Shown: positions 23,016 through 39,570 of the stretch, piece after piece
Position numbering within the stretch: the stretch's first letter is position 1
How the letters are laid out: the number at the start of each line of letters is the position of its first letter
Assembly: GCA_035648795.1 (NCBI GenBank)
Contig: DASRKV010000032.1
Location: 1-39,570, forward strand
DNA: 39,570 nt
Direction of reading: 5' to 3'
Source of the DNA: Opitutaceae bacterium
GTDB taxonomy: Bacteria > Verrucomicrobiota > Verrucomicrobiia > Opitutales > Opitutaceae
Translations under genes and position numbers: made by a program
The notes under the pieces: model-generated
What the model saw: only the letters and a program-made list of their open reading frames with translations
What the model was told of the DNA's origin: nothing
The model's database searches: none

Positions 23016-24824
23016 ATGGATTTGCCTATGAATGAGACGTCGGCCTCGTTCCTGCGTCGGATTTGCCTTTCCGCGCTTCGTCTCGGTTTAATCTCCGGCG
23101 CTTTGGGCGCGGTGAGCCGGGCGGCGGGTCCGGATCAATCCTTGGGCGACTCCGTCCGGGGCCGGACCCTGTTCCAGCAGAGCTGCGCGCTTTGCCACGC
23201 CACCGCCCTGGAAAAGCAGGTCGCCGCCGGACAGGGGCCCCTCCTTGCTGGTATCGTGGGGCGCCACGCCGCTTCTCTCGCGAACTTCAGCTACACGAAG
23301 GCGCTGCAGGCGTCCGATCTCACGTGGGATGCCGGCACGTTGGACCGGTTTCTCGCGGGCCCGCAGATTTTGGTTCCCGGAACCGCGATGGCGGCGGCGG
23401 TTTCGGACTCAACCGATCGCCGGGATCTCATTGCGTTCCTCGGGACTTTGCCCCGCGTAGAGGCGGTTGTGGGAGCGGCGGGCGCTGCGCCGGTCGTTTT
23501 CCCCGCCGTTGGCAGATCCGATCGCGGCGATTGGCGCAATGACGGACCCGGCATTCGGCATTCCATCTCGCTCGAAATGCTGCCCGCGCCTTACGCTACG
23601 ACCTCGGCCGGGAACTCGCCCACCGTTGTCGACCGACCATCGGGCGCCGCCTTGTCGGTTCCTTCGGGCTTCGCCGTTCAGTTGTTCGCCTCCGGTTTGT
23701 CTGGGCCCCGGCTGATGCGCGTCGCGCCCAACGGGGACATTTTCATCGCGGAGACCGGCAGAGACCGTGTCCGGGTGCTTCGGGCCACGGATGGCGCAAA
23801 CCATCCCTCCCAGATGGCGGTCTTTGCGGATGGCCTTCGCGGGCCGTTTGGCATCGCGTTCTATCCTCTCGGCCCGGATCCGCGGTGGATCTATGTGGCC
23901 AACCTTAATTCCGTGGTCCGTTTTTCCTACCGCAACGGCGACCTCACCGCGCGTGGTCCCGCCGAGGTTGTCGTGCCCAGCCTCGCCGAGTCCACGGGCG
24001 GGCATACGACGCGCGACGTCGCGTTTTCCCTGGACGGCCGGCGCATGTTCATCTCGGTCGGTTCCGGATCGAACGTCGCGGAAACCATGCCGGCGAAATC
24101 TCCGGCCGAGATCCGGCCTTGGGTGGCTGCACACGGGTTGGGCGCGGCCTGGGGCTTCGAGGCAAGACGGGCCGACATCCTGGCGACTGATCCCGAAGGC
24201 CGCCAGCCCGCGCGGATGTTTGCGACCGGAATCCGCAATGCGGTGGGACTGGCCGTGAACCCGGCCACCGGAGAGCTGTGGGCGTCGACCAACGAGCGCG
24301 ACGCCCTGGGCGACGACTTGGTGCCGGATTACATCACTCATGTGCGCGAGGGCGGATTTTACGGCTGGCCGTGGTATTACCTGGGAAGCCATGAAGACCC
24401 ACGCCACGCTGGTGAAAGGCCCGATCTTGCCGGCCACGTCATCGTTCCCGACGTCCTGTTGCAGCCCCATTCGGCGTCATTGCAAATGGTGTTCTATGCG
24501 GCCACGGCGGGAGTGGCGGTGTTTCCCGCCGAGTACCGCGGGGACATATTTGCGGCTTTTCACGGATCCTGGAATCGCAGCATCCGCACCGGCAGCAAGG
24601 TCGTTCGCGTGCGATTCAGGAATGGTGTTCCGACGGGTGACTACGAAGATTTCGTCACGGGTTTCGTGATCGACGACCGCCATGTCTGGGGCCGGCCGGT
24701 GGGTGTAGCCGTGGCCCGCGACGGCGCGCTGCTGGTGACGGACGACGCCAACGGCACCGTATGGCGCATCGCCTATCTGGGCCGCGGCAGCAGTGGAACA
24801 GCGGCGGAAGCGGGATCGCATTAA
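23016..24824 (+). CDS. Cytochrome c domain fused to PQQ-dependent sugar (glucose/sorbosone) dehydrogenase beta-propeller
   Basis: Signal-like N-terminus. Haem-c motif CALCH, with a downstream Met region (PGTAM). Propeller blocks typical of soluble sorbosone/glucose dehydrogenases: GPRLMRVAPNGDIFIAE, GPFGIAFYP, GIRNAVGLAVNPATGELWASTNERD, EGGFYGWPWYY. Confidence 0.85.
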   Translation: MDLPMNETSASFLRRICLSALRLGLISGALGAVSRAAGPDQSLGDSVRGRTLFQQSCALCHATALEKQVAAGQGPLLAGIVGRHAASLANFSYTKALQASDLTWDAGTLDRFLAGPQILVPGTAMAAAVSDSTDRRDLIAFLGTLPRVEAVVGAAGAAPVVFPAVGRSDRGDWRNDGPGIRHSISLEMLPAPYATTSAGNSPTVVDRPSGAALSVPSGFAVQLFASGLSGPRLMRVAPNGDIFIAETGRDRVRVLRATDGANHPSQMAVFADGLRGPFGIAFYPLGPDPRWIYVANLNSVVRFSYRNGDLTARGPAEVVVPSLAESTGGHTTRDVAFSLDGRRMFISVGSGSNVAETMPAKSPAEIRPWVAAHGLGAAWGFEARRADILATDPEGRQPARMFATGIRNAVGLAVNPATGELWASTNERDALGDDLVPDYITHVREGGFYGWPWYYLGSHEDPRHAGERPDLAGHVIVPDVLLQPHSASLQMVFYAATAGVAVFPAEYRGDIFAAFHGSWNRSIRTGSKVVRVRFRNGVPTGDYEDFVTGFVIDDRHVWGRPVGVAVARDGALLVTDDANGTVWRIAYLGRGSSGTAAEAGSH

Positions 24825-24840
24825 GAGCCGATCCAACAGA

Positions 24841-26271
24841 TCACAGTGCGTGAAGAGCTGACTTGCTCACGGCCAAACCGGCTTCCTTGACCGCCTCGCT
24901 GAGGGTGGGATGGGCGTGAATGGTGCGGCCCAGGTCTTCGGCGCTGCCACCGTATTCCATATGGGCGACGACTTCCGCGATGAGTTCGGAGGCGCCACGA
25001 CCGATGATCTGCGCGCCGAGAATGCGGTCGCTCTTCGCATCGGCGACGATCTTCACGAAACCATCGATGGCGTCGGCGGCGAGGGCCCGCCCGTTGGCGG
25101 CAAAGAAGAACTTCCCGAGGCGCACGTCGATGCCTTTCGCCTTGGCGCCGTCCTCGCCGAGGCCGACCGCCGCGACCTCGGGATCGGTGTAGATGATCGC
25201 CGGCACCAGGTTCCAGTCGACATGACCGGATTTGCCGGCGATCCACTCGGCGACCGCGATGCCGTCTTCCTCGGCCTTGTGCGCCAGCATCGGCCCGGCG
25301 ACCACGTCACCGATCGCCCAAACCCCGGGGACGGACGTGCGCAAGTGGTCGTCGACCCGGATGCGTTTCTTTTCGTCGAGCTCGATGCCGACCTTTTCGA
25401 GCCCGAGATTCTCCGTGACGGGGTGGCGGCCGACGGAAACAAGGATCTTGTCCGCCGGGAACTCCATCGGCTTGCCCTCTCGTTCCGCGAGCAACACCGC
25501 CGGCCTGGCTCCCCGGGATGAAGGATTCGGCGCCGGTTCCTTCAACCCGGTGATCCGGGCGTTGACCTCGATCTTCAGGCCCTCCTTGGCGAGCAGACGC
25601 GTCAGCAGGCGCACGACATCGTCATCGTAACTGGCGGCGATCTTGGGGAGAAATTCGACCACCGTTACGTCAGAGCCGAGCCGGGACCACACGGAGCCGA
25701 GTTCGAGCCCGATGGCGCCGCCGCCCACCACGACGAGACGCTGCGGGACGGAATCGAACGCGATCGCCTCGTCGGAAGACACGACGGTCTGCCGGTCGAA
25801 GGGCAGGAAAGAGAGTTCGGCGGGGACGGACCCGGAGGCGACGACGATATTTCGCGCCGCGATTTCTGTCGTGGCACTACCGGGGCCTGAAGCGGTCACC
25901 ATGACCCTGCCATTGCCGGCCAGCGCGGCTTGACCGCTGAACACGGCGACCTTGCGCGCCTTCGCGAGTTGGGCGGCGCCGCCGACGAGCCTTTGGACCA
26001 CGCCGTCCTTTTTCTTCATCAACGTCGGCAGGTCGAGTCCGACCCCGGACAACAGGATGCCGCTGGCGGCGGCCTGGTTTTTAGCCCAGGCGAAATGCTC
26101 GCTCAGTTGCAGCAGCGCCTTGCTGGGAATGCAGCCGACGTTGAGGCAGGTGCCCCCGAGGGTCGGGCGTTTTTCGAGGAGAGCGACCTTGAGGCCGAGT
26201 TGCGCGGCGCGGAATGCGCACACGTAACCGCCGGGCCCGGCGCCGATGATGGCAACGTCAAATGAATCCAT
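24841..26271 (-). CDS. lpdA: Dihydrolipoyl dehydrogenase (E3)
   Basis: FDVAIIGAGPGGY (FAD), GGTCLNVGCIPSK (redox disulfide), NAD-binding VVVGGGAIGLE, C-terminal HAHPTLSE. Confidence 0.95.
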   Translation of the reverse strand: MDSFDVAIIGAGPGGYVCAFRAAQLGLKVALLEKRPTLGGTCLNVGCIPSKALLQLSEHFAWAKNQAAASGILLSGVGLDLPTLMKKKDGVVQRLVGGAAQLAKARKVAVFSGQAALAGNGRVMVTASGPGSATTEIAARNIVVASGSVPAELSFLPFDRQTVVSSDEAIAFDSVPQRLVVVGGGAIGLELGSVWSRLGSDVTVVEFLPKIAASYDDDVVRLLTRLLAKEGLKIEVNARITGLKEPAPNPSSRGARPAVLLAEREGKPMEFPADKILVSVGRHPVTENLGLEKVGIELDEKKRIRVDDHLRTSVPGVWAIGDVVAGPMLAHKAEEDGIAVAEWIAGKSGHVDWNLVPAIIYTDPEVAAVGLGEDGAKAKGIDVRLGKFFFAANGRALAADAIDGFVKIVADAKSDRILGAQIIGRGASELIAEVVAHMEYGGSAEDLGRTIHAHPTLSEAVKEAGLAVSKSALHAL

Positions 26272-26419: not shown

Positions 26420-27661
26420 TCACACGCTGAGCAGGAGCCGCGCGGGATCCTCGATGGCCTGCTTCAGACGCACGAGGAACGTCACCGCGTCGCGACCGTC
26501 AACGATCCGGTGGTCGTAGCTCAGCGCGACATACATCATCGGCCGGATGACCACCTGGCCACTCACCGCGACCGGGCGGTCCTGGATGGCGTGCATGCCG
26601 AGAATGGCGCATTGCGGCGCGTTGAGGATGGGCGTCGAGAGGAGGGATCCGAAGACGCCGCCATTGGTGATCGTGAAGACGCCGCCGTCGAGGTCGGCCA
26701 GCGTGATCTTGCCCTCGCGGGCTTTCTGGGCGGCGCCGGCGAGTTGCCTCTCGATCTCGGCGAATCCCACCCGTTCGCAGTCGCGCAAGACGGGAACCAT
26801 AAGGCCGCGGTCGGTGGAGACGGCGACGCCGATGTCGTAGAAATGGTTTTCGACCAGGGTGTCGCCCTCGATCTGGGCGTTGACGGTTGGGACCTCCTGC
26901 AAGGCGTGCACCACCGCTTTGACGAAGAATGACATGAAGCCGAGCTTCACGCCGTGTTTCCGGGTGAATTCCTCCTGGTGCCTCGCGCGGAGCTCGCGCA
27001 CCGCAGACATGTCGACCTCGTTAAAGGTGGTGAGCATCGCCGCGTCGTGCTGGGCCTGCACGAGGCGCTGGGCGAGCCGCAGGCGAAGGGGCGAGAGCTT
27101 CCGGCGGGTCGTTCGATTTGGGAAAGTGGAAACCGGAGACCGGATAGGTTCTGCCGGAGACTGGATAGGTTCTGGCTGAGGGCGGACAGGCTCGGTGGAT
27201 GCCTTTCCGGTATCCGGTAGCTGGTGTCCGGTTTCCGCCGCCGCCAGCATGTCGCTCTTGGTGACGCGGCCTCCCTTGCCCGTGCCGGCCACCGCGGCGG
27301 GATCGACCCCGCTTTCGGCGGCAAGACGGCGGACCGACGGAGGAACCGGGACATCGGACGCGGGCGCCCGGACCGGTCCGGTTGGAACCGCGGCGCCGGA
27401 TGCTCCCGTGTCCTGCGTGTGCTCCCCTGTTTCGATCACGGCGACCAACTGGCCGATCTTGACTTCGGCGCCAGCGGCCACCTTGAGCGCGACGCGCCCG
27501 GCGGCTTCGGCCGTGCCTTCCGTGGTGATCTTGTCCGTCTCCAATTCGAAGAGCGGCTGATCCTTCTTCACGAAGTCACCCTCTTTCACGTGCCATTTGG
27601 CGAGCACGCCGCCGGTGATCGATTCGCCCAGGGAGGGGATCTTGACGTCGAGGGTGGGCAT
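26420..27661 (-). CDS. sucB: Dihydrolipoyllysine-residue succinyltransferase (E2 of 2-oxoglutarate dehydrogenase)
   Basis: Lipoyl domain with the ELETDKIT lysine, a Pro/Ala/Ser-rich linker, an E3-binding segment, and a catalytic domain ending [17 protein letters not shown]. Confidence 0.93.
27133..27174. repeat. 21-bp tandem duplication inside the sucB linker
   Basis: CCGGAGAC[C/T]GGATAGGTTCTG occurs twice. It encodes [14 protein letters not shown] in the flexible linker. Confidence 0.6.
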
Positions 27662-27905: not shown

Positions 27906-30683
<2,778 letters not shown>

Positions 30684-30900
30684 GGGAGTGTTCCGGCTAT
30701 GAGCATTAGGCCAACGATAGGCAATTTGGCCGCGGGCTCAGGGCCAAACGACGGATCGAAGCCTGGCTAATCACGCTGCACAGTGCCATCACTAAGGCTG
30801 ATGCCACGGGACTGGTGCTCCGACTGGATAAAGGCCCCCAGCCGGCCCCATGCTGTTGTCGGAGCAAGCTGGTTCGCGATTACCGAGGGAAGATCGCTTG

Positions 30901-31035
30901 TCCCTCGACGGTTTCGACAAGCTCACCGCGAGCATGCTCGGGACCCTGACCCGTTCGACGGTGCTCAGGGTCATCCTGAGCGACTCGACTGAGCTCGTCG
31001 AAGTCCTGTCGAAGGATGAGCCTGTCGAACGGGCA
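30901..31035. repeat. Complex palindromic element in the sucA upstream region
   Basis: Imperfect 23-25-nt inverted arms (CCCTCGACGGTTTCGACAAGCTC ... GAGCTCGTCGAAGTCCTGTCGAAGG) enclose nested hairpins (GACCCTGA/TCAGGGTC, CTCAGG/CCTGAG). Conceptual translation gives FDKL... and ...LSKDE strings, as in widely dispersed bacterial REP-type repeats. Confidence 0.45.
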
Positions 31036-31092
31036 AGCAGGCTCCTACACCGGTCATTAAATGAGGGAGACCATGGTTCTTTTACTTGCTGG

Positions 31093-32253
31093 CTACGGCT
31101 CCACGATGACCGGCAGTCCCACCCAGGCCAGACCCAGGAGTGTCCGCGCGTCCCAGTTGGCGAGCCGGAAGCAGCCGTGGGATTCGGTGCGGCCCACGAG
31201 TTCCGGGGTAGGGGTGCCATGGATACCGTAGCCGGGGCGGTCGAGCCCGATCCACGCCACGCCGACCGGGTTGTTGGGACCCGGCGGAAGGACCAGTTTG
31301 CGCCCCAGTTCCCGGGCCTCCGCGGACTCGGAAAACACGTCGGGATCAAACGTGTAATCAGGATTGGGAATCACTACGGTCACATGCAGTTCGCCCGCCG
31401 GCCGCTTGGCGACCTCGCGCGCGATGCTGACCGGAAAGTGCGCGAGCAGGTTGCCGGCGTCATCCCGGACTTCCAGAATGTGATCCTCCAGACTGATGTG
31501 GAGCAGGGCCGCCTTGCCCGGCAGCGCAACGGGCCCCACCGCGGGGGCCAGCACGGTCGTCGCGGGCGTGATGGCGGTCCAGTCGAGCGCCGGGTTGAGT
31601 TGCTGGAGGAGCGCGGGATGGGCATGCGTCCGCTCCGCCGCCATCTCGAGGGCATTTTCATAAGCGAGGGCGGTCTGCTGGGATTTGCCGAGCCAGGTCG
31701 GGCTGAGCGGCTGCAGACCGGCCAGATCCCCGGTCGTGAGCGATATCCGGGCCAGGGGCGGAGCGGAGAGAACCAGGCGGCCGCGAGTCTCCGCGTCAAG
31801 CTGACCGGTCGGCGGAAGTCCGGCGCTCTCCTGAAAGGCCCGCAGGGCGGCGATCGATTGGGAGCCGGCGACCCCGTCGATCGGTCCGCAGGAGAATGCC
31901 CGGCGCGCGAGCTCAATCTGCGCCTCCAGCCATGTCGCGACTGGACGCGGATACGCCTCGACCGGGATCGCAACGGCCGGGTCTTCGCGCGGAAGCTGAG
32001 CGGGCTTCGAGGAAGGTGGGGCCGGGGCGGGGGAAGGCGGCTTTGGGCGCGCCGCGGTCCCTGTCACCGGCACCGCTTCAACGATCTTGACGGCTGTGTC
32101 GGGGCTGGATCGCGCGGAGTGGCGGGAGACGAACTGGTACTTCAGCTCGCCGCCGATCGCGAGAAAGAGGACGAACAAAATGATCAGCCCTTTGTGGTCG
32201 GATTTGCCGGCGGCGCTCATGGGCGGAGTTGGTTGCGGCATCTGGGCTAACAT
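31093..32253 (-). CDS. L,D-transpeptidase (YkuD domain) with peptidoglycan-binding domain
   Basis: N-terminal TM anchor and a Pro-rich spacer. PG-binding-1-like segment: GPIDGVAGSQSIAALRAFQESAGLPPTGQLD. Catalytic block: GYGIHGTP...SHGCFRLANWD. Confidence 0.9.
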   Translation of the reverse strand: MLAQMPQPTPPMSAAGKSDHKGLIILFVLFLAIGGELKYQFVSRHSARSSPDTAVKIVEAVPVTGTAARPKPPSPAPAPPSSKPAQLPREDPAVAIPVEAYPRPVATWLEAQIELARRAFSCGPIDGVAGSQSIAALRAFQESAGLPPTGQLDAETRGRLVLSAPPLARISLTTGDLAGLQPLSPTWLGKSQQTALAYENALEMAAERTHAHPALLQQLNPALDWTAITPATTVLAPAVGPVALPGKAALLHISLEDHILEVRDDAGNLLAHFPVSIAREVAKRPAGELHVTVVIPNPDYTFDPDVFSESAEARELGRKLVLPPGPNNPVGVAWIGLDRPGYGIHGTPTPELVGRTESHGCFRLANWDARTLLGLAWVGLPVIVEP

Positions 32254-32499
32254 GCCGCCGATGTTTTAGCCCGCAAATTTCATGGAGTCGCGACGCCCCC
32301 GTCGCGTTGCGCTCGCAGACCATCGGCGATGACGCCGGGGCATCAGTTTGAGGTGAGGCGCCTGCCCTGGCCTCGGTCAGCCGCCGGCCCGCGGCTCATC
32401 CCGCAAATCCGGCTATGTTCTGCGGCGGCGCCTCCGGTTTTCATATCGCCCGCAAAATATTATTCGACTAACGCTAAACAATGCCTAAAAGATAGTCTT

Positions 32500-35079
32500 A
32501 TGCCATGGTGTAAGTACTCTTATGTCAACTTTGCGGGCGGGGTGGCAGGGCTCTGCCTTGTTGGGACGGCGGTCGGTTTTGCCAGACCCATCGTGGACGA
32601 GGCGAAAGCCCTGGGGAAAACGCCGGCCGATTTTCCCGCCGCCAGCTACGACTATTTCCATGACATGGATATGGTCGCGGACGGTCACGGCGGCTTGCGC
32701 CCGCTGGACCTGACGGAAGACGAGATCAAGGGTCGCAACACCTGGTTGATGTGGTGCGGCGGCAACGAGGTCTTCTGGGATTGGCTCGCCGGCAACAGCT
32801 ATGGGTTCATGGACCTCTTGAAGCTGGTCGATTTCTCCCCGCGCGACCCGTGGGGAGGGAAGCGTTTCGGTCCGGCGGGCCTGATCATCGAGCCGGGCAC
32901 CAAGGCGCCGGACCAGCCGGATCAATTCGGTCTGTACATTCGCGTGGCCGAAAATCCCACCGCGCCGCAGCCGCGCCCGGACGTCTATGGTTATTCATCC
33001 GGGATGGTCGGTCTGCGGCTTTTCCCCAATCCCCAGTTCGACGAACCGGCGCGGAAGAAGTGGGATCCCGAAAGGTACCGCGCGGATGAAGCCTATTTTA
33101 CCAACCCGCAACTGATCCGCCCGTATCGCGTGGGGATGACGTGCGCGTTTTGTCATGCGGCGCCGCATCCGCTCAACCCCCCGGCGAATGTCGAGGCGCC
33201 CCAGTGGGCCAACCTGTCGTCGAACATTGGCGCCCAGTATTTCCGGACGCGGGCGGTTTTCGGCAATCTGCTGACGCCGGATAGCTTCGTGTACCATCTG
33301 CTGGACAGCCAGCCGCCCGGCACGATCGACACCTCGCTCGTCGCCTCCGACAATATCAACAACCCGAATACGATGAACGGGATTTGGGACGTGGCGGCCC
33401 GGCTGGATCGCTCGGGCCTGACGGTGCATCGCGATCCGGCGTATGCGGCGGCCTACCAGGCCCGCTACGGCCACAATACGTTCGAGCAGGTTTCCACCGC
33501 CTCCGCATATCTCCCCATCGTGCTGGCGGGGGCCCCCGACGCGCACGCCAATCCGCGGCCGGTGCCGCACGTGCTGCTGGAGGGCGCCGACTCGGTGGGT
33601 ATCTGGGGGGCGCTGGCCCGCGTCTATCTGAACATCGGCACGTTTTCGGAACGATGGATCACGCTGCACAATCCCCTCGTAGGTTTTCGGAAGCAGCAGC
33701 CGTTCAGGATCGCGGATAGCGAGGAGAACTCCGTCTACTGGCAGGTCAACCGGCTGCGCGTGGAGTACCTGGCGAAGTTCTTCCTCAAAGCGACGGCGCC
33801 GATGCACCTGAAGGACGCTCCCGGCGGAAGCGTCTACGTGAAAGGCGAGGGGGTTTCCTGGGCGCCGGAACTCGCACCCGGGCGGAAGGTCTTCGCGGAA
33901 CACTGCATCATCTGCCATTCCAGCAAGCAGCCCAACGGCCGCGACGGCATGCCAAAGGGCCCCGAGGCGATTCCCGGCGATCAGTTGCTCAACCAATTGA
34001 AAGACCCGGGCTACCGCCAGTGGGCGCTGGCCGAGGTCGAAAAGCGGGATTTCTGGGAGGATAATTTCCTCTCCAGCGAGGTCCGCGTGCCGGTGACGGT
34101 GATCAAGACGGAGGCGGGCCGTTCCATGGCCAGCAATGCCGTCGCCGGCCACATCTGGGAGGACTATTCCTCTGACACGTACAAAGAGCTCCCCTCCGTG
34201 GGGCAGATCACCTACTGGAATCCTTTCACGCAAAAAGACGAGCCGTGGACGGCGCCGGCCGGGGGCCGCGGCTATTACCGGCCGCCAAGTCTGGTGAGCG
34301 TCTGGGCCACCGCGCCGTACCTGCACACCAACACCGTGGGCTTGTTTAACAACGACCCGTCGGTCAAGGGACGCATGGAGGCATTCGCAGACGGGATTCA
34401 CCGGCTGCTGACGCCGGGCAAGACGGACGAGGAGGCGGCGGCCCGGCGGTGGAACATGGGGCCGCCCCGCGATTTCGATCATCTCATCAACCAGGCCACG
34501 GCGGAGCGTTATCTGCAGGATCATGGCCTGATCTGGCGCACGCCGACCGCCACGCGCCTGCACATTCCGGCGCGCAGCGTGCGCGGACTCCTCGCGGGCG
34601 TGACCATGGGCCCGCTGCGATTCGTGGTGGATCACCCCTGGATCCCGCCGGCAGTGCTGCTGCTGATCGCGCTGCTCGTTTTGCTGACGAGCGACGGGAT
34701 CACATGGCGGCGGAACGCCGGCTACTTGATTATTCTCGTGGCAGTCGTCGCGGGCTTTGGGGCGAACTTCATTGCGGGCCGATTCGGGGATTTGAATGTC
34801 GGGCCGATTCCGGCCGGCACTCCCGTCAATCTGTTGGCCAATGTTAATCCCGAAGACGCCCGGATGCCGGGCAACGTTCGGGCGGTGATCAAACGTCTGG
34901 CGGCGTTGAAGGAATCCGCGACGCCGGAAGAGCGGCAGCAGGCCCTGAACGACGTCGCCAATCAACTGCTCGCGATCAGCAACTCGCCGGATCTGGTGAT
35001 GGATCGCGGCCACTACTTTGGCCGGGACCTCACCGATCAGGAACGGAACGATTTGATCGAATTGCTGAAGACGTTTTGA
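32500..35079 (+). CDS. Membrane-anchored di-haem c-type cytochrome protein (cytochrome-c-peroxidase/MauG-like features), function unknown
   Basis: Start taken at ATG 32500 (MPWCKYSYVNFAGGVAGLCLVGTAVGFA, signal anchor), preceded by an A/T-rich patch. Two CxxCH motifs: CAFCH at 33142..33156 and CIICH at 33904..33918. Two hydrophobic helices lie near the C-terminus. The C-terminal DRGHYFGRDLTDQERNDLIELLKTF resembles the end of the di-haem peroxidase family. Confidence 0.8.
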   Translation: MPWCKYSYVNFAGGVAGLCLVGTAVGFARPIVDEAKALGKTPADFPAASYDYFHDMDMVADGHGGLRPLDLTEDEIKGRNTWLMWCGGNEVFWDWLAGNSYGFMDLLKLVDFSPRDPWGGKRFGPAGLIIEPGTKAPDQPDQFGLYIRVAENPTAPQPRPDVYGYSSGMVGLRLFPNPQFDEPARKKWDPERYRADEAYFTNPQLIRPYRVGMTCAFCHAAPHPLNPPANVEAPQWANLSSNIGAQYFRTRAVFGNLLTPDSFVYHLLDSQPPGTIDTSLVASDNINNPNTMNGIWDVAARLDRSGLTVHRDPAYAAAYQARYGHNTFEQVSTASAYLPIVLAGAPDAHANPRPVPHVLLEGADSVGIWGALARVYLNIGTFSERWITLHNPLVGFRKQQPFRIADSEENSVYWQVNRLRVEYLAKFFLKATAPMHLKDAPGGSVYVKGEGVSWAPELAPGRKVFAEHCIICHSSKQPNGRDGMPKGPEAIPGDQLLNQLKDPGYRQWALAEVEKRDFWEDNFLSSEVRVPVTVIKTEAGRSMASNAVAGHIWEDYSSDTYKELPSVGQITYWNPFTQKDEPWTAPAGGRGYYRPPSLVSVWATAPYLHTNTVGLFNNDPSVKGRMEAFADGIHRLLTPGKTDEEAAARRWNMGPPRDFDHLINQATAERYLQDHGLIWRTPTATRLHIPARSVRGLLAGVTMGPLRFVVDHPWIPPAVLLLIALLVLLTSDGITWRRNAGYLIILVAVVAGFGANFIAGRFGDLNVGPIPAGTPVNLLANVNPEDARMPGNVRAVIKRLAALKESATPEERQQALNDVANQLLAISNSPDLVMDRGHYFGRDLTDQERNDLIELLKTF

Positions 35080-35149: not shown

Positions 35150-37078
35150 ATGCCTGTTTTACCGCCGACCTCGCGCCCACCCGATGCGGAATGCGATTTC
35201 ATCATTGTGGGCTCGGGCGCCGGCGGCGGACCGCTCGCCGGCAATCTGGCGCGGCGGGGCTTCCGGGTGTTGGTGCTCGAGGCGGGCGGTTGGGACGAAC
35301 CGGAAGTCTGCCAGGTTCCCGCGTTTCACGCGCACGCCTCCGAGCACGCGGAAATCAGCTGGGAGTTCTTCGTCAAACACTACGCCCATCCGCGCCAGCC
35401 GGATTCGAAATGGGATGCGGCCCGCGACGGCGTGTTCTATCCGCGCACCGCCACCGTGGGCGGATGCACGATGCACAACGCGATGATCACGCTCTGCGGG
35501 CCGGGCGGGGACTGGGACGAGATCGCCGGGCTGACGGGCGATGATTCCTGGAACAGCTTCCGCATGCGCGAATACTTTGAGCGGCTCGAACGCTGTGGTT
35601 ATTCGCCCCGGCCGAAGGAGTCCCGCCGGTCAATTCTCAACTGGATCGGCCGGCTCCTTGGGCTGCCGCCCGACGGCAATCCCGGACGCCATGGGTTTGA
35701 CGGCTGGCTGACGACGACGATGGCCGATCCCCGCATCGCCATCAGAGATCCGGAGTTGCTCGCCCAGATCCTCGCGGCATTCGCCGTGGCCGAGGCCGCT
35801 GATTTGGTCGATGGCCGGAGAATCGTCGCCGCCGCCCTCGCGAATCGGCTGGTCGCCCCGGTCGATCCGAATGACTGGCAGACCATGCAACGGAACGCGG
35901 AGGGCCTGGCACTGATCCCGATCGCGGTGCGCGACGGGCGGCGCAATGGTCCCCGCGACTTTCTGCGACAGGTGCAGCAGGAGTTTCCTGACCGGCTGAC
36001 GATCCAGACCCACACCCTGGTCACTCAAATCCTCTTCGATCGCGAACCCGGCGCCCCCGGCGTGCCAACGGCGGTGGGCGTGCGCTACCTGAAAGGGAGG
36101 CATCTCTACCGAGCCCACCCGGAGCCGAGTGCCAGCGCCGGCGAGGACGGCGAGGTCCGCTGCCGACGCGAGGTGGTTTTGTGCGGCGGGGCCTATAATA
36201 CGCCGCAGTTGCTCAAATTGTCCGGAATCGGCCCGGCCGACGAGTTACGGAGGTTTTCCATTCCCGTGCGCGTTCATTTGCCGGGCGTCGGCACCAATCT
36301 GCAGGACCGGTACGAACTCGGCATCATTTCGGAAGCGCAACGCGATTTTCCCCTGTTGCAGGGATTGAGCATGGGGGAGCCCGGCCCCGGCCGCGCGCCC
36401 GACCCCGCGTTGGAAGAGTGGCGGGCGAAAGGGACCGGCCTTTACGCGACCAATGCGGCCATCCTGGGATTAATGAAGAAATCGCGTCCCGATCTGCCGG
36501 CGCCGGATCTCTTCATTTTTGCCCTGCCGGGCTATTTCAAAGGCTACTACCGGGGCTATTCCCGGGACATCGCGAAGGCGCATAACGTTCTGACCTGGGC
36601 GATTCTGACCGCCCGCACCCTCAACCGTGGGGGCTGCGTCCGGCTGCGTTCGACGGATCCGCGAGACCCGCCGGAAATCAATTTTCACTATTTCCACGAA
36701 GGCACGGACGTCCAACAGGAGGACATGGACGCCATGGTCGAGGGCGTGAAGTTTGTTCGTGAGATCAACCGCCGGGCCACGGCGTTGGGCGCGCTCAAGC
36801 GGGAGGTCTGGCCGTCGCCGGACGTGGCGGACGACCAGGCGATTCGCGCGTTCATCGCGCGGGAAGCCTGGGGGCATCATGCCTCCTGCTCGTGTCCGAT
36901 CGGCGCCCACGGCGATCCCATGGCCGTCCTCGACAGCCGGTTTCGCGTGCGGGGCGTGAGGAGCCTCCGCGTGGTCGACGCGTCGGTCTTCCCGCGGATT
37001 CCCGGCGTCTTCATCGTGACGAACATCTACATGGTGTCCGAAAAGGCGAGCGACGTGATCGCCTACGACAACGGTTAG
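35150..37078 (+). CDS. GMC (glucose-methanol-choline) family FAD-dependent oxidoreductase
   Basis: DFIIVGSGAGGGPLAGNLA...VLVLEAG (FAD ADP-binding). GMC signature regions: VGGCTMHNAM, EVVLCGGAYNTPQLLKLSGIG. C-terminal active-site region: GHHASCSCPIG...VLDSRFRVRGVRSLRVVDASVFP. No signal peptide. Confidence 0.92.
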   Translation: MPVLPPTSRPPDAECDFIIVGSGAGGGPLAGNLARRGFRVLVLEAGGWDEPEVCQVPAFHAHASEHAEISWEFFVKHYAHPRQPDSKWDAARDGVFYPRTATVGGCTMHNAMITLCGPGGDWDEIAGLTGDDSWNSFRMREYFERLERCGYSPRPKESRRSILNWIGRLLGLPPDGNPGRHGFDGWLTTTMADPRIAIRDPELLAQILAAFAVAEAADLVDGRRIVAAALANRLVAPVDPNDWQTMQRNAEGLALIPIAVRDGRRNGPRDFLRQVQQEFPDRLTIQTHTLVTQILFDREPGAPGVPTAVGVRYLKGRHLYRAHPEPSASAGEDGEVRCRREVVLCGGAYNTPQLLKLSGIGPADELRRFSIPVRVHLPGVGTNLQDRYELGIISEAQRDFPLLQGLSMGEPGPGRAPDPALEEWRAKGTGLYATNAAILGLMKKSRPDLPAPDLFIFALPGYFKGYYRGYSRDIAKAHNVLTWAILTARTLNRGGCVRLRSTDPRDPPEINFHYFHEGTDVQQEDMDAMVEGVKFVREINRRATALGALKREVWPSPDVADDQAIRAFIAREAWGHHASCSCPIGAHGDPMAVLDSRFRVRGVRSLRVVDASVFPRIPGVFIVTNIYMVSEKASDVIAYDNG

Positions 37079-37092
37079 TTAGGGATCCACCG

Positions 37093-39570
37093 ATGCGAAC
37101 CGACGCTAACGTTCCTCCTCTCACGCGGGCGCCTCCGGCCACCTTCGCCCCGCAATTGCAGACGATTGAAACCGCCGCCATCGCGGCGCGACGGTGCTTG
37201 ATCGCGGAGGATGCGCCCGAGGTGAAATTCGCGGATGGGGCGGTCGGCCTGGCGCTGTCGGGCGGAGGTATCCGGAGCGCGACGTTCAATCTCGGACTGC
37301 TCCAGGGCCTGGCACGTTGGCGGTTCCTGCGGCTCGTCGATTACCTGTCGACGGTTTCGGGCGGCGGCTACATCGGCGGATTTCTCGGCCGGTTTTATAC
37401 TCGGTTTGTGAACCGGCCGCAGGGGGCCGCCGATCTGGTGGAAGCGCGTCTCGCCGATCCGGCGTCGCCGGAGATCCGCTGGCTCCGGCAAAACGGCAAT
37501 TACCTCGCCCCGGGCGGCGTCGGCGACACGTGTTACAACGCGGCGTCTTTCCTCCGCAACTTCCTCACGGTGCATGCGGTGTTGGGGGTCGGCCTGTTCG
37601 CCGTTCTCGGCATGGCCAACCTGCTGCGCTTCGAATTCTTTCCCTGGCTGACCGAGGCGTGGTGCCGGATGATTCCGATGGACCCGGGCGGCGGCATGAG
37701 TCTGGCCATGGCGGATGAATTGCCGATCAACTACCTGTTACGCGCGGGGTGGGGATTGCTCTGGAGTCCGTGGTTCATCCTCGTGGAAGCCGTCATTCTG
37801 GTGGGCGGCCTGCCGCTGGCGCTGGCTTATTGGCTCGTGTCGCCGGATCAGCCGCAGGCCTTTCAACCCGCGGCGCTCAAGGCCACGCTGGTGCTCTGTG
37901 CCGCGCTGTTCGCCGTGGGGGCGGCGCCGGCCGACGCGCTGCGCTGGGCGCCGATGGTGGTCGCCGTTTCGATGCTGCTGAGCTTCGTTTATGTGGAAGC
38001 AGCGTGGCGGCGGGTGCGCCGCCGGTGTCCCGGCGGACTTCTGCAACCGGTCACGCGCCGCCAGGTGCGGGGCCTGCTCACCGCCTGGCTGGGTGCGGCA
38101 TTTTTCTGGGGGGTGATCGCGGTGGGCTTTGCTGCGCTCGATGCGGCCGGGTACGCATTGTACGGATGGGTCGACCGGCGGGAGGATTTTGCCCGCGTAT
38201 TGGGCCTGATCGGATCGGGACTCGCCGCGCTCTACCCCGTTCTGCGCTGGGGCACGGGCCGGCTGGCGCAAGCAGCCAGAACCCAGGGCAAGGGAAAAGG
38301 GGGCGGATGGTTCAATCTCCTGGTTCATCCTGCGGTGTTGCCATTGGCCGTCGCGGTACCGCCGTTGCTGCTGGTGAGCCTGGCCAGCCACGTGTTGTTT
38401 GCCCGCGGCGAGCACGGGGCGGCTGCGGTGGCGACGACGGGTGTTGCGCTCCTCCTCTCGGTCCTGCTCGGTCGGCAGGACGCGCGGCCGTTCGTCAACC
38501 GCTCGTCGTTCCAAAGCATTTATGCCGCCAGAATCTCCCGGGCCTACCTCGGAGCCTCGAACCATTTTCGCCTGGGCGGCGTCGAAGGACGGGATGTGAC
38601 GACCTCCGATCCGAACGACGACATCTGGCTGAATGGCTACCAGCCCGAAAACGCGGGCGGTCCGGTGCATCTGATCAATGTCTGCGTGGATGAGACGATC
38701 GAGTATTCCTCGCAGCGGTCGTTTCGGGACCGGCACGGCGAGAACATGGCGGTCGGACCCGCGGGCGTCAGCATCGGTGCGACATGGCATGCCACCTGGA
38801 GGCGCGCCCAGGGCCCGCGAGGCCCGGGCGGTGAGGCGGTGGCCGCGGACCCGGAAGATCTCCCGCATCCCCTGCGCGGGCCGCAACCGGGTCCGGTCAA
38901 AACAGAGCCGCTCTACCTGAGCGACTGGCTCGCGATCTCCGGGGTGGCGGCCAACCCGGGGCGCGGTCAGGGGGTGAAACCCGGATCAAGTCTGTTGTTT
39001 GGGATCGGCAACTTGCGTGCCGGCTATTGGTGGAACAGCGGTCTCGACGAATACGAACGGCCGGGCTTGGGGCGACCGACGCTGGGCTCGGCGCTGCGGA
39101 AACTTCCCGAACGGCTCTTTCGGACCCAGTTCTTTTTTCTGCGGGAGTTCACCGCGTCGTTCACCGGACCGTGGAGGCGCTATTGGCATCTGTCGGATGG
39201 AGGCAACTTCGAAAACCTGGGCGTCTACGAACTGATCCGGCGCCGGGTGCCATACATCATCGCGTCGGATGCCACTTACGACCCGAAAGGTCAGCAGGCC
39301 GATCTGGCCAACCTGTTGCGCAAGGTGCGGATCGATTTCGACGCGGAGGTGCAGTTCCTTTCCGCCGACGAAATCGCGGCGCTCCCGGTGCCTGACCAGG
39401 TCAAAACACGGCTGGGAACACCAACGGACCTGCGCGCGGCCGCCGATGGGAACGGCCGGTCCCGGAAACACGCGTCCCTTGCCCGCATCTTCTATGATGG
39501 CCGGAGCGAACCGGGCGGTGTGCTCCTGTATCTGCGCTCGGGACTGACCGGCGACGAGCCGGAAGACGTG
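37093..39570 (+). CDS. Partial CDS (826 codons; continues past the right edge): patatin/cPLA2-type phospholipase with a polytopic membrane insertion
   Basis: Not in the ORF track (no stop in the window); no other + ORF is listed in this frame. ATG 37093 lies 14 nt after the GMC stop. Oxyanion-hole motif LSGGGIRS (37261..37275). Nucleophile elbow STVSGGGY (Ser codon 37357..37359). SxxxP block ISGVAANPG. Catalytic Asp motif HLSDGGNFENLG (Asp codon 39196..39198). About 8 hydrophobic helices lie between the Ser and the Asp. Confidence 0.85.
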   Translation, partial: MRTDANVPPLTRAPPATFAPQLQTIETAAIAARRCLIAEDAPEVKFADGAVGLALSGGGIRSATFNLGLLQGLARWRFLRLVDYLSTVSGGGYIGGFLGRFYTRFVNRPQGAADLVEARLADPASPEIRWLRQNGNYLAPGGVGDTCYNAASFLRNFLTVHAVLGVGLFAVLGMANLLRFEFFPWLTEAWCRMIPMDPGGGMSLAMADELPINYLLRAGWGLLWSPWFILVEAVILVGGLPLALAYWLVSPDQPQAFQPAALKATLVLCAALFAVGAAPADALRWAPMVVAVSMLLSFVYVEAAWRRVRRRCPGGLLQPVTRRQVRGLLTAWLGAAFFWGVIAVGFAALDAAGYALYGWVDRREDFARVLGLIGSGLAALYPVLRWGTGRLAQAARTQGKGKGGGWFNLLVHPAVLPLAVAVPPLLLVSLASHVLFARGEHGAAAVATTGVALLLSVLLGRQDARPFVNRSSFQSIYAARISRAYLGASNHFRLGGVEGRDVTTSDPNDDIWLNGYQPENAGGPVHLINVCVDETIEYSSQRSFRDRHGENMAVGPAGVSIGATWHATWRRAQGPRGPGGEAVAADPEDLPHPLRGPQPGPVKTEPLYLSDWLAISGVAANPGRGQGVKPGSSLLFGIGNLRAGYWWNSGLDEYERPGLGRPTLGSALRKLPERLFRTQFFFLREFTASFTGPWRRYWHLSDGGNFENLGVYELIRRRVPYIIASDATYDPKGQQADLANLLRKVRIDFDAEVQFLSADEIAALPVPDQVKTRLGTPTDLRAAADGNGRSRKHASLARIFYDGRSEPGGVLLYLRSGLTGDEPEDV

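Follow-up and report, generated by a model that had tools for sequence, protein, structure and literature searches.

A probable integral-membrane lipase of the patatin/cPLA2 superfamily with eight predicted transmembrane helices inserted between its catalytic serine and aspartate

The stretch of DNA analysed here, referred to as the window, is 39,570 nucleotides of contig DASRKV010000032.1 from an Opitutaceae bacterium, and its 3′ end carries a lipase gene that is truncated by the window edge. The product of this gene is probably, and in our judgement with good confidence, an acyl hydrolase that is integral to the inner membrane and belongs to the patatin/cPLA2 superfamily, with a Ser89–Asp702 dyad, an insert of eight helices within the catalytic domain, and redox partners that are specific to its clade. 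All coordinates are positions in the window on the forward strand, and residue numbers are lipase codons counted from the ATG at 37093.

The lipase frame runs from 37093 to 39570 on the plus strand and was translated into 826 codons with zero stops. It is absent from the mechanical list of open reading frames (ORFs) only because it runs past the end of the window. A full-length homologue of 882 amino acids that is 99% identical (P0001) indicates that the window holds codons 1–826 of 882 and that 56 codons lie beyond it. The gene for P0001 is also found 3′ of a glucose–methanol–choline (GMC) oxidoreductase gene on an independent contig (L001), and in the window the lipase ATG is located 14 nucleotides past the stop codon of the upstream GMC gene. 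Full-length homologues number in the thousands; they are 850–900 amino acids long and can be aligned from end to end. An earlier reading of the window from sequence alone (the sequence-only reading) had described one uninterrupted gene rather than two, and this description agrees with the stop-free translation, with P0001, and with the full-length homologues. The lipase gene, its two predicted catalytic segments, and the motifs within them are as follows.

37093–39570, plus strand: lipase gene, codons 1–826 of 882, truncated by the window edge (open frame, P0001, and L001)
37093–37518, plus strand: predicted N-terminal cytoplasmic catalytic segment, residues 1–142, in the order strand, oxyanion loop, helix, strand, Ser, helix (Pfam, cPLA2 delta match, hhalign, and AlphaFold2 (AF2) model)
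37261–37275, plus strand: oxyanion-hole motif G57-G58-G59-I-R61 (G57, G58, G59, and R61 100% in 76 species proteins)
37357–37359, plus strand: codon of the putative nucleophile Ser89, motif T-V-S-G-G (100% conserved; at the junction of strand 84–87 and helix 90–103 in the AF2 model)
38482–39570, plus strand: predicted C-terminal cytoplasmic catalytic segment, residues 464–826, continuing to 882 outside the window (conservation; cPLA2-like match in the full-length model)
38935–38961, plus strand: ISGVAANPG block, residues 615–623, with S616-G617-A-A (AF2 helix 609–617)
39196–39216, plus strand: putative catalytic Asp702, motif D-G-G-N-F-E-N (DGGxxxN) (D702, G703, and G704 100%; at the C-terminal end of strand 697–702)

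The oxyanion motif is contained in LSGGGIRSATFNLGLLQGL (residues 55–73), Ser89 in DYLSTVSGGGYIG (residues 83–95), and Asp702, whose codon is 39196–39198, in HLSDGGNFENLGVYELIRR (residues 699–717). All of the motifs named in the sequence-only reading (oxyanion, nucleophile, ISGVAANPG, and Asp, with the Ser and Asp codons at 37357 and 39196) are present, and the gap that it gave as about 610 residues is 613 residues. The ISGVAANPG block is a candidate equivalent of the “ASxxxP” block of patatins.

Conservation was evaluated in two sets of homologues. Alignment A1 contains 70 full-length metagenomic homologues with identities of 35–72%, and the species set contains 76 proteins, each taken from the genome of a different species, with many phyla represented. 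In A1, residues G57, G59, R61, S89, and D702 are invariant, and the distance between Ser and Asp is 570–622 residues in all sequences. In the species set, GGGxR, V88-S89-G-G, and D702-G-G are each conserved at 100%, and the distance from the oxyanion motif to the Asp is 487–740 residues with a median of 635. Within the ISGVAANPG block, S616 is conserved at 100%, G617 at 97%, and both A618 and A619 at 99% in the same 76 proteins. Because GGGxR, Ser89, and Asp-Gly-Gly are retained without exception across these species, the conservation pattern is, as judged from the alignments, that of an active enzyme.

The N-terminal part of the protein was placed in the superfamily by profile comparisons. 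Residues 53–105 match positions 1–51 of the 191 positions of the Pfam Patatin profile with 26.5 bits, which is below the gathering threshold of 27.7. A precomputed match to PF01734 is carried by many homologues, and in members from Burkholderiales the Patatin match reaches profile positions 84–105 of 191 before the insert begins. When the A1 profile was compared with PDB sequences, the best match was to cPLA2 delta (E 0.009, N-terminal half only), and VipD was also matched. The N-terminal half was aligned by hhalign with a profile of the canonical patatin family A4 from the oxyanion loop to the Ser (E 4.7e-5, probability 68%). Ser89 aligns with the nucleophilic serines of cPLA2 delta, VipD, and canonical patatins. 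In the corresponding alignment of the C-terminal half, “LSDGGHFENTG” is paired with “VDGGYYDNYG” of A4, and D702 falls on the invariant Asp. No match to PF01735 (PLA2_B) was obtained at E ≤ 0.01 in a Pfam scan of the lipase, nothing was obtained when the C-terminal half was compared by hhalign with one canonical patatin sequence, and a homologue search started from a 78-residue fragment of cPLA2 delta returned short exon fragments only.

A structural model of the whole 882-residue chain was obtained with AF2 using alignment A1. The mean predicted local distance difference test score (pLDDT) is 89.2, and the predicted TM-score (pTM) is 0.89. The model resembles patatin folds in that Ser89 is preceded by a strand and followed by a helix, and in that Asp702 terminates a strand. 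The model was compared with the PDB using Foldseek, and ranks 1–10 are all cPLA2 alpha (1CJY) or cPLA2 delta (5IZ5, 5IZR, and 5IXC). The E values of these ten matches range from 3e-4 to 0.13, with probabilities of 0.96–1.00 for nine of them and 0.80 for the other. Only cPLA2 alpha and delta match the full-length model at E below 0.3. Weaker matches, mostly over a short stretch, were found for ExoU, VipD, PlpD, CapV, CapE, and patatin; PlpD is matched over about 90 N-terminal columns only. Alignments of 485–944 columns have TMq values of 0.21–0.32, versus 0.10 for about 150 N-terminal columns. Because the additional TMq of the long alignments can hardly be attributed to the N-terminal segment alone, the C-terminal half of the model must be superposed on cPLA2 in the same frame as the N-terminal half. 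From the model we infer that the N- and C-terminal pieces pack into one cPLA2-like domain in which Ser89 and Asp702 would be in proximity. For the membrane part there is no significant structural match in the PDB by Foldseek, and the matches to transporters have probabilities below 0.1. STING-like matches that were returned for a model of the C-terminal half alone were not significant (E ≥ 0.27, probability ≤ 0.28) and were not interpreted.

The insert between the two pieces was analysed by hydropathy and in the AF2 model. Eight hydrophobic peaks are found on the Kyte–Doolittle scale in P0001, centred at residues 166, 236, 268/272, 292/296, 340, 375, 423, and 451. Averaging of the hydropathy over the 70 homologues of A1 reproduces these eight peaks, and eight long helices occupy these positions in the AF2 model. 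Eight segments were counted in 43 of the 70 metagenomic homologues and seven or nine in 26 of them; for the 76 species proteins the corresponding counts are 37 and 28. The predicted transmembrane (TM) helices and the two conserved motifs that flank them are listed below.

37480–37527, plus strand: pre-membrane motif W130-L-R132...Y137..P140.G142..D145 (R132 100%, P140 99%, L131 97%, and G142 96% in 76 species)
37561–37623, plus strand: predicted TM helix 1, residues ~157–177 (hydropathy peak 2.2–2.3; AF2 helix 143–193)
37771–37830, plus strand: predicted TM helix 2, residues ~227–246, ending in Y246-W247 (hydropathy and AF2; W247 96% conserved)
37876–37929, plus strand: predicted TM helix 3, residues ~262–279 (hydropathy and AF2)
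37948–38001, plus strand: predicted TM helix 4, residues ~286–303, followed by an Arg-rich, putatively cytoplasmic loop at 304–332 (hydropathy and AF2; R326 88%)
38089–38145, plus strand: predicted TM helix 5, residues ~333–351 (hydropathy and AF2; D350 83%)
38197–38250, plus strand: predicted TM helix 6, residues ~369–386, followed by a basic, putatively cytoplasmic loop at 387–412 (hydropathy and AF2)
38329–38388, plus strand: predicted TM helix 7, residues ~413–432 (hydropathy and AF2)
38428–38481, plus strand: predicted TM helix 8, residues ~446–463 (hydropathy and AF2)
38497–38571, plus strand: post-membrane motif N469.S471.....Y477..R480..R483..L486...N490..R493 (N469 and Y477 100%, R480 99%, R483 and N490 97%)

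The mean numbers of Lys plus Arg residues in the even-numbered loops 2, 4, and 6 are 1.5, 5.3, and 3.4, respectively, in the 70 homologues, and those in the odd-numbered loops 1, 3, 5, and 7 are 1.9, 0.3, 1.7, and 0.6. Basic residues are also concentrated past TM8. No signal peptide was found ahead of the 156-residue N-terminal part of the lipase. In those relatives in which a GMC domain is fused to the lipase, the GMC part is longer than 600 residues and opens with an FAD (flavin adenine dinucleotide) motif at residues 16–43, and it has no Sec or Tat signal. From the charge bias of the loops, the lack of a signal peptide, and the signal-less GMC fusions, a cytoplasmic location is well supported for both the N-terminal piece (residues 1–142) and the C-terminal piece (residues 464–882). 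The sequence-only reading had suggested that an even number of helices would return both halves to one side of the membrane; eight hydrophobic segments and eight AF2 helices were found rather than an odd number, and the charge bias and signal-less fusions identify the predicted side as the cytoplasm.

The TM helices themselves are weakly conserved, with the exceptions of Y246-W247, R326, and D350. The stretches that flank the insert (W130–D145 together with R155, and N469–R493) are conserved at 91–100% in the 76 species proteins. This difference in conservation points to a functionally important junction between the putative membrane bundle and the catalytic domain.

The insert spans approximately residues 143–463 and begins about 55 residues past the nucleophile. 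With residues 143–460 removed, the spacing between Ser and Asp would be about 295 residues. The spacing in cPLA2 alpha, reportedly determined by Dessen et al. in 1999, is 321 residues, and that in the canonical A4 patatins is 194. The 240 residues from TM8 to Asp702 form five strands and several helices in the AF2 model. Because the spacing without the insert approximates that of cPLA2 alpha and the β-rich region is retained, the membrane domain is probably an extra insertion that follows two or three post-nucleophile helices and not a replacement of the lid. The sequence-only reading is upheld on a polytopic membrane domain that splits the dyad; its proposal that this domain is itself the lid is probably not correct in a simple form, given the approximately 295 residues that remain without the insert.

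The lipase gene is the third of three co-directional genes, separated by gaps of 70 and 14 nucleotides, and no terminator-like site was found in either of the two intergenic gaps. The two upstream genes are as follows.

32329–35079, plus strand: 916-residue membrane-anchored two-haem c-type cytochrome (CCP/MauG/RoxA-like), first gene of the cassette (CAFCH and CIICH; PSL...APY.H motif)
35150–37078, plus strand: GMC FAD-dependent oxidoreductase, predicted to be cytoplasmic (Pfam GMC_oxred_N and GMC_oxred_C)

The GMC protein matches PF00732 (5.4e-15) and PF05199 (2.3e-29), both above the cut-offs. The FAD motif GSGAGG is at residues 20–25, and no signal peptide was found. It resembles choline dehydrogenase (BetA; PDB 9LQ0), its best solved relative at 2.5e-44, in having both GMC domains, the FAD motif, and the His of the active-site segment “HH/HP-x-C-x-C”. 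With the NCBIfam models for BetA (TIGR01810 and PRK02106) the protein scores 248.2 bits against a cut-off of 605 and 213.5 bits against one of 732, and it is not BetA on this basis; nor is BetA known to be joined to a membrane lipase or encoded beside one, as the GMC protein and its relatives are. An identity as fatty-acid photodecarboxylase (FAP) was rejected: FAP is one of the solved relatives, with an E value of approximately 1e-37, but choline dehydrogenase is closer, and the His typical of alcohol-oxidising enzymes is kept where FAP has an Asn. The cytochrome carries a membrane anchor at its N-terminus and two further membrane helices in its C-terminal part, and the proteins encoded in its place at loci L002 and L003, which are from distant phyla, have 53% and 43% identity to it. 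Its family matches are all below threshold and no relative was found in the PDB; it represents a separate family that is likewise uncharacterised.

The order cytochrome–GMC–lipase was found in the window and in loci L002–4, L006–10, L020, L048, and L087. It is seen in Rhodopirellula islandica, Gemmata, Pirellulaceae, Verrucomicrobiota, Burkholderiales, and a Mesorhizobium plasmid. Fusion of the GMC domain to the N-terminus of the lipase occurs in many relatives and yields proteins of 1,500–1,700 amino acids. The ten cassette-linked lipases included in a distance tree of 76 family proteins, that of the window among them, together form a single clade. The gene fusion is strong evidence for a pathway shared by the GMC protein and the lipase. 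The conserved operon and the fusion together are the strongest functional clue for the lipase, and this clue is absent from the sequence-only reading. Apart from these partners, no neighbour is conserved family-wide by crude ORF clustering of 86 loci.

Several further observations were made at the cassette loci. Fusions of about 1,560–1,680 residues are encoded at L087 (5823–10511, plasmid pOM4 of Mesorhizobium onobrychidis, WP_258124319.1), L007, L008, L020, and L048. The RefSeq name of the pOM4 protein WP_258124319.1 is only “GMC oxidoreductase”, so that the lipase and the membrane half are hidden in the annotation. A DUF4331 protein is encoded 3′ of the lipase in eight loci, including L003 (10607–11722), L004 (10656–13120), L007–L010, and L016, and no description of DUF4331 was found in the literature searched. 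A conserved protein of about 366 residues with no Pfam match often follows the DUF4331 gene; the window ends before that position. At L002 (658–3537) and L004 (15169–17595) the cassette is adjoined by a second, different membrane-associated patatin with a hydrophobic N-terminal half followed by an uninterrupted patatin domain, the family of which shares the unusual SVSGG and DGGxxxN variants with the split lipase.

The lipase shares with the eukaryotic cPLA2 enzymes (GIVA alpha, 1CJY; GIVD delta, 5IZ5/5IZR/5IXC) the Ser–Asp dyad, a GGGxR oxyanion loop with its Arg, a nucleophile motif of the form x-x-S-G-x (G-I-S-G-S in cPLA2 delta and T-V-S-G-G in the lipase), and the long Ser–Asp spacing noted above. 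It differs in that cPLA2 is soluble and is recruited to membranes by a Ca2+-dependent C2 domain, whereas the lipase would be permanently embedded by its eight inserted helices. No C2 domain was detected in the lipase with Pfam, residues 1–50 form a single helix in the AF2 model, and the sequence identity to cPLA2 is only about 10–12%. With the canonical patatins (PF01734; RssA-type A4, PlpD, VipD, ExoU, and CapV) the lipase has the oxyanion, nucleophile, and DGG blocks in common in the same order, and it shares the SVSGG and DGGxxxN(x)G variants with family A4. In the canonical patatins, however, Ser and Asp are about 140–200 residues apart within an uninterrupted soluble domain.

Membrane association of patatins occurs through N- or C-terminal modules, such as the β-barrel of PlpD and the C-terminal bundle of ExoU. 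It is not known to occur through helices placed between the catalytic residues, and no counter-example was found in the literature searched. In PNPLA6/NTE and PNPLA7 the patatin domain is also held at the membrane by TM segments of the same polypeptide, but in these enzymes, as in the 959-residue patatin of L002, the anchors lie outside an intact catalytic domain, whereas those of the lipase split it. Positions 4–186 of the Patatin profile are matched contiguously at residues 570–808 of the L002 protein. In contrast to the type Vd autotransporters PlpD and FplA, the lipase has no POTRA domain or 16-stranded β-barrel as judged by Pfam, and its C-terminus is α/β and soluble in the AF2 model. Neither this architecture nor the cassette was found to be described in the literature searched by full text.

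The split architecture is not a rarity of the window but defines a very large family in many phyla. With a word-indexed search, the clusters at 90% identity numbered more than 7,358. An exhaustive search of 1.84 billion representatives gave 23,289 matches at E ≤ 1e-3, 15,956 at E ≤ 1e-10, and 8,435 at E ≤ 1e-30; clusters of the family at 50% identity number at least 8,435. When one genome was scanned for each species, members were confirmed in at least 587 species, which belong to Verrucomicrobiota, Planctomycetota, Acidobacteriota, many Burkholderiales, Pseudomonas, Novosphingobium, Lysobacter, and Enterobacteriaceae. Records of plasmids and chromids add Rhizobium, Mesorhizobium, and Cupriavidus. 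The database names of members are “hypothetical protein”, “PNPLA domain-containing protein”, and “patatin-like phospholipase family protein”, and there is no dedicated family model in Pfam or NCBIfam.

Two variants of the family chain were observed. The member from Cupriavidus metallidurans CH34 (L088 5917–8742, corresponding to NC_007974.2:141087–143786 of the chromid) has 941 residues, all of the motifs, and the hydrophobic insert, and its oxyanion loop and nucleophile are separated by a low-complexity “TPEATPEA” repeat. In Burkholderiales and relatives (L036, L040, L046, L054, L059, L067, L070, L072, L073, L077, L078, and L081–L086) the frames run about 400 residues past the C-terminus of the lipase, and this extension has no Pfam match in L072 and L083, the two that were tested.

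A number of results weigh against the assignment of the lipase as a membrane-embedded acyl hydrolase with redox partners. The sequence-only reading had placed both halves in the superfamily, and profiles support this for the N-terminal half; for the C-terminal half the placement is weak, the hhalign match to A4 being a short one of 26 columns around DGG (E 6.7e-4, probability 27%). The C-terminal half has no Pfam match in 30 members and no NCBIfam match or relevant PDB sequence match with a 30-species profile (A2). Reassembly of the two halves is supported by the model of the whole chain with its cPLA2 matches and not by the C-terminal half modelled alone, which has a low-confidence pLDDT of 69.6 and no significant fold match. 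The TM-scores to cPLA2 are low in absolute terms (0.2–0.39). The nucleophile elbow is T-V-S-G-G and not the canonical G-x-S-x-G; the first Gly of the elbow is likewise replaced in the related SVSGG patatin family A4. GMC and cytochrome partners are lacking in about 65 of the 86 loci, mostly those of other clades, and the coupling to these partners is for this reason considered to be clade-specific. Direct electron transfer from the GMC protein to the haems is not obvious, since the one is predicted to be cytoplasmic and the other periplasmic.

Five other explanations were considered alongside the membrane-embedded acyl hydrolase. Apart from the unusual length between the motifs, nothing suggests that a misassembly or a frameshift has fused two genes into the long frame, and this explanation is refuted by the recurrence of the same continuous architecture in independently assembled genomes and in cultured strains whose genomes are complete; it is seen in C. 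metallidurans CH34, Oleiharenicola sp. Vm1, and Chitinimonas lacunae, and in the 8,435 representative clusters of the exhaustive search. A catalytically inert transporter, sensor, or channel with a vestigial patatin domain would be compatible with a C-terminal half that is invisible to sequence profiles and with a membrane domain that makes up a third of the protein and resembles no solved structure significantly. Such a protein is nevertheless quite improbable in view of the complete conservation of GGGxR, Ser89, and Asp-Gly-Gly across species of many phyla and of soluble parts that are conserved far better than the membrane helices. It is somewhat less improbable, though still not expected, that the enzyme acts mainly as an acyltransferase or transacylase that remodels lipids rather than as a hydrolase. 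The Ser–Asp chemistry also supports transacylation in PNPLA enzymes and in cPLA2 gamma and epsilon, and an active site buried against the membrane domain would keep water out; a survey of neighbours at the loci, however, found no conserved gene for an acyl carrier or for handling coenzyme A.

The same architecture in the opposite orientation would place the catalytic domain in the periplasm, where it would act on outer-leaflet or outer-membrane lipids near the haem protein. The c-type haem partner in the cassette must be periplasmic, and a shared compartment would make for a simple pathway. The basic loops, however, share their side of the membrane with the N- and C-terminal domains, the 156-residue N-terminal domain has no signal peptide, and the fused GMC domains of more than 600 residues open with their FAD motif and not with a Sec or Tat signal, which makes this orientation improbable. 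Patatin-like phospholipases are common as defence effectors and toxins, and CapV, CapE, and ExoU are among the weak fold matches, in line with a suicide or anti-phage effector or a toxin of the CapV/ExoU kind that wrecks the membrane when triggered. This role is very unlikely: no PADLOC model matches the lipase or its two neighbours, the chromosomal surroundings are ordinary, the window showing neither a tRNA nor genes for mobile elements or defence, no family member was found in 2.9 million viral contigs, and the partners are redox enzymes rather than sensors or cyclases.

For the membrane-embedded acyl hydrolase, the following mechanism is proposed. The cPLA2-like domain assembled from the two pieces would be seated on the inner (cytoplasmic) face of the membrane, and the R132...P140-G142 and N469...R493 stretches would probably form a junction or portal between the membrane and the active site. 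The helix bundle may guide a membrane lipid to the active site, where an acyl ester would be cleaved or transferred. In the clade of the window the lipase would work with the cytoplasmic FAD-dependent GMC alcohol oxidoreductase and with the periplasmic membrane-anchored two-haem cytochrome. The three genes would constitute a module for the processing of membrane lipids, with one enzyme supplying the substrate on which the other acts. The lipase reaction would be coupled to alcohol oxidation by the GMC enzyme in this clade and, in some way, also to the periplasmic two-haem protein. It may be speculated that the GMC enzyme oxidises the lysolipid or lipid-alcohol product, or that oxidised acyl chains are removed.

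The remainder of the window is ordinary chromosome and includes sucA-sucB-lpd, lysS, an L,D-transpeptidase gene, and radical-SAM genes. No tRNA and no Rfam match were found in the window. The gene adjacent to the cassette is as follows.

31093–32253, minus strand: L,D-transpeptidase (YkuD and PG_binding_1 domains)

An Arg-rich ORF of 466 codons at 30850–32250 on the plus strand is antisense to the L,D-transpeptidase gene. It was rejected as a gene on the basis of having no family match and no homology to the flanks of the cassette in other genomes, and it is almost certainly spurious, an artefact typical of a genome with 65% G+C. A protein of 602 amino acids with an N-terminal cytochrome c domain and a glucose/sorbosone dehydrogenase (GSDH) β-propeller is encoded at 23016–24824 on the plus strand. 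It adjoins the 2-oxoglutarate dehydrogenase genes lpd (24841–26271), sucB (26420–27661), and sucA (27906–30683), all of which are on the minus strand.

The usual description of patatin and cPLA2 enzymes is of soluble lipases that act at interfaces and depend on recruitment to reach the membrane. The family described here would represent a different solution that is used on a large scale, in which a polytopic membrane domain is built between the nucleophile and the acid. Its members constitute a gap in annotation: their labels are “hypothetical” or “patatin-like”, and the fusions are named “GMC oxidoreductase” alone. The operon with the GMC and two-haem proteins, together with the fusion, provides a concrete route to a new membrane-lipid pathway. 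Members are present in the cultured hosts Cupriavidus metallidurans CH34, Mesorhizobium onobrychidis OM4, Paraburkholderia nodosa, and Rhodopirellula islandica (RISK_000566), of which C. metallidurans CH34 is a genetically tractable model bacterium. A bolder and decidedly tentative proposal, which we regard as doubtful, is that the insert is more than an anchor, namely a new lipid-handling domain that extracts a specific membrane lipid, possibly one that is oxidised or modified in another way, and feeds it sideways to the active site, and that, with the GMC enzyme and the peroxidase-like cytochrome, it forms a hitherto unrecognised trans-membrane pathway for the removal and oxidation of damaged or specialised lipids. 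If this proposal were true, the system would be a bacterial counterpart of the excision of peroxidised acyl chains by eukaryotic patatin and PLA2 enzymes.

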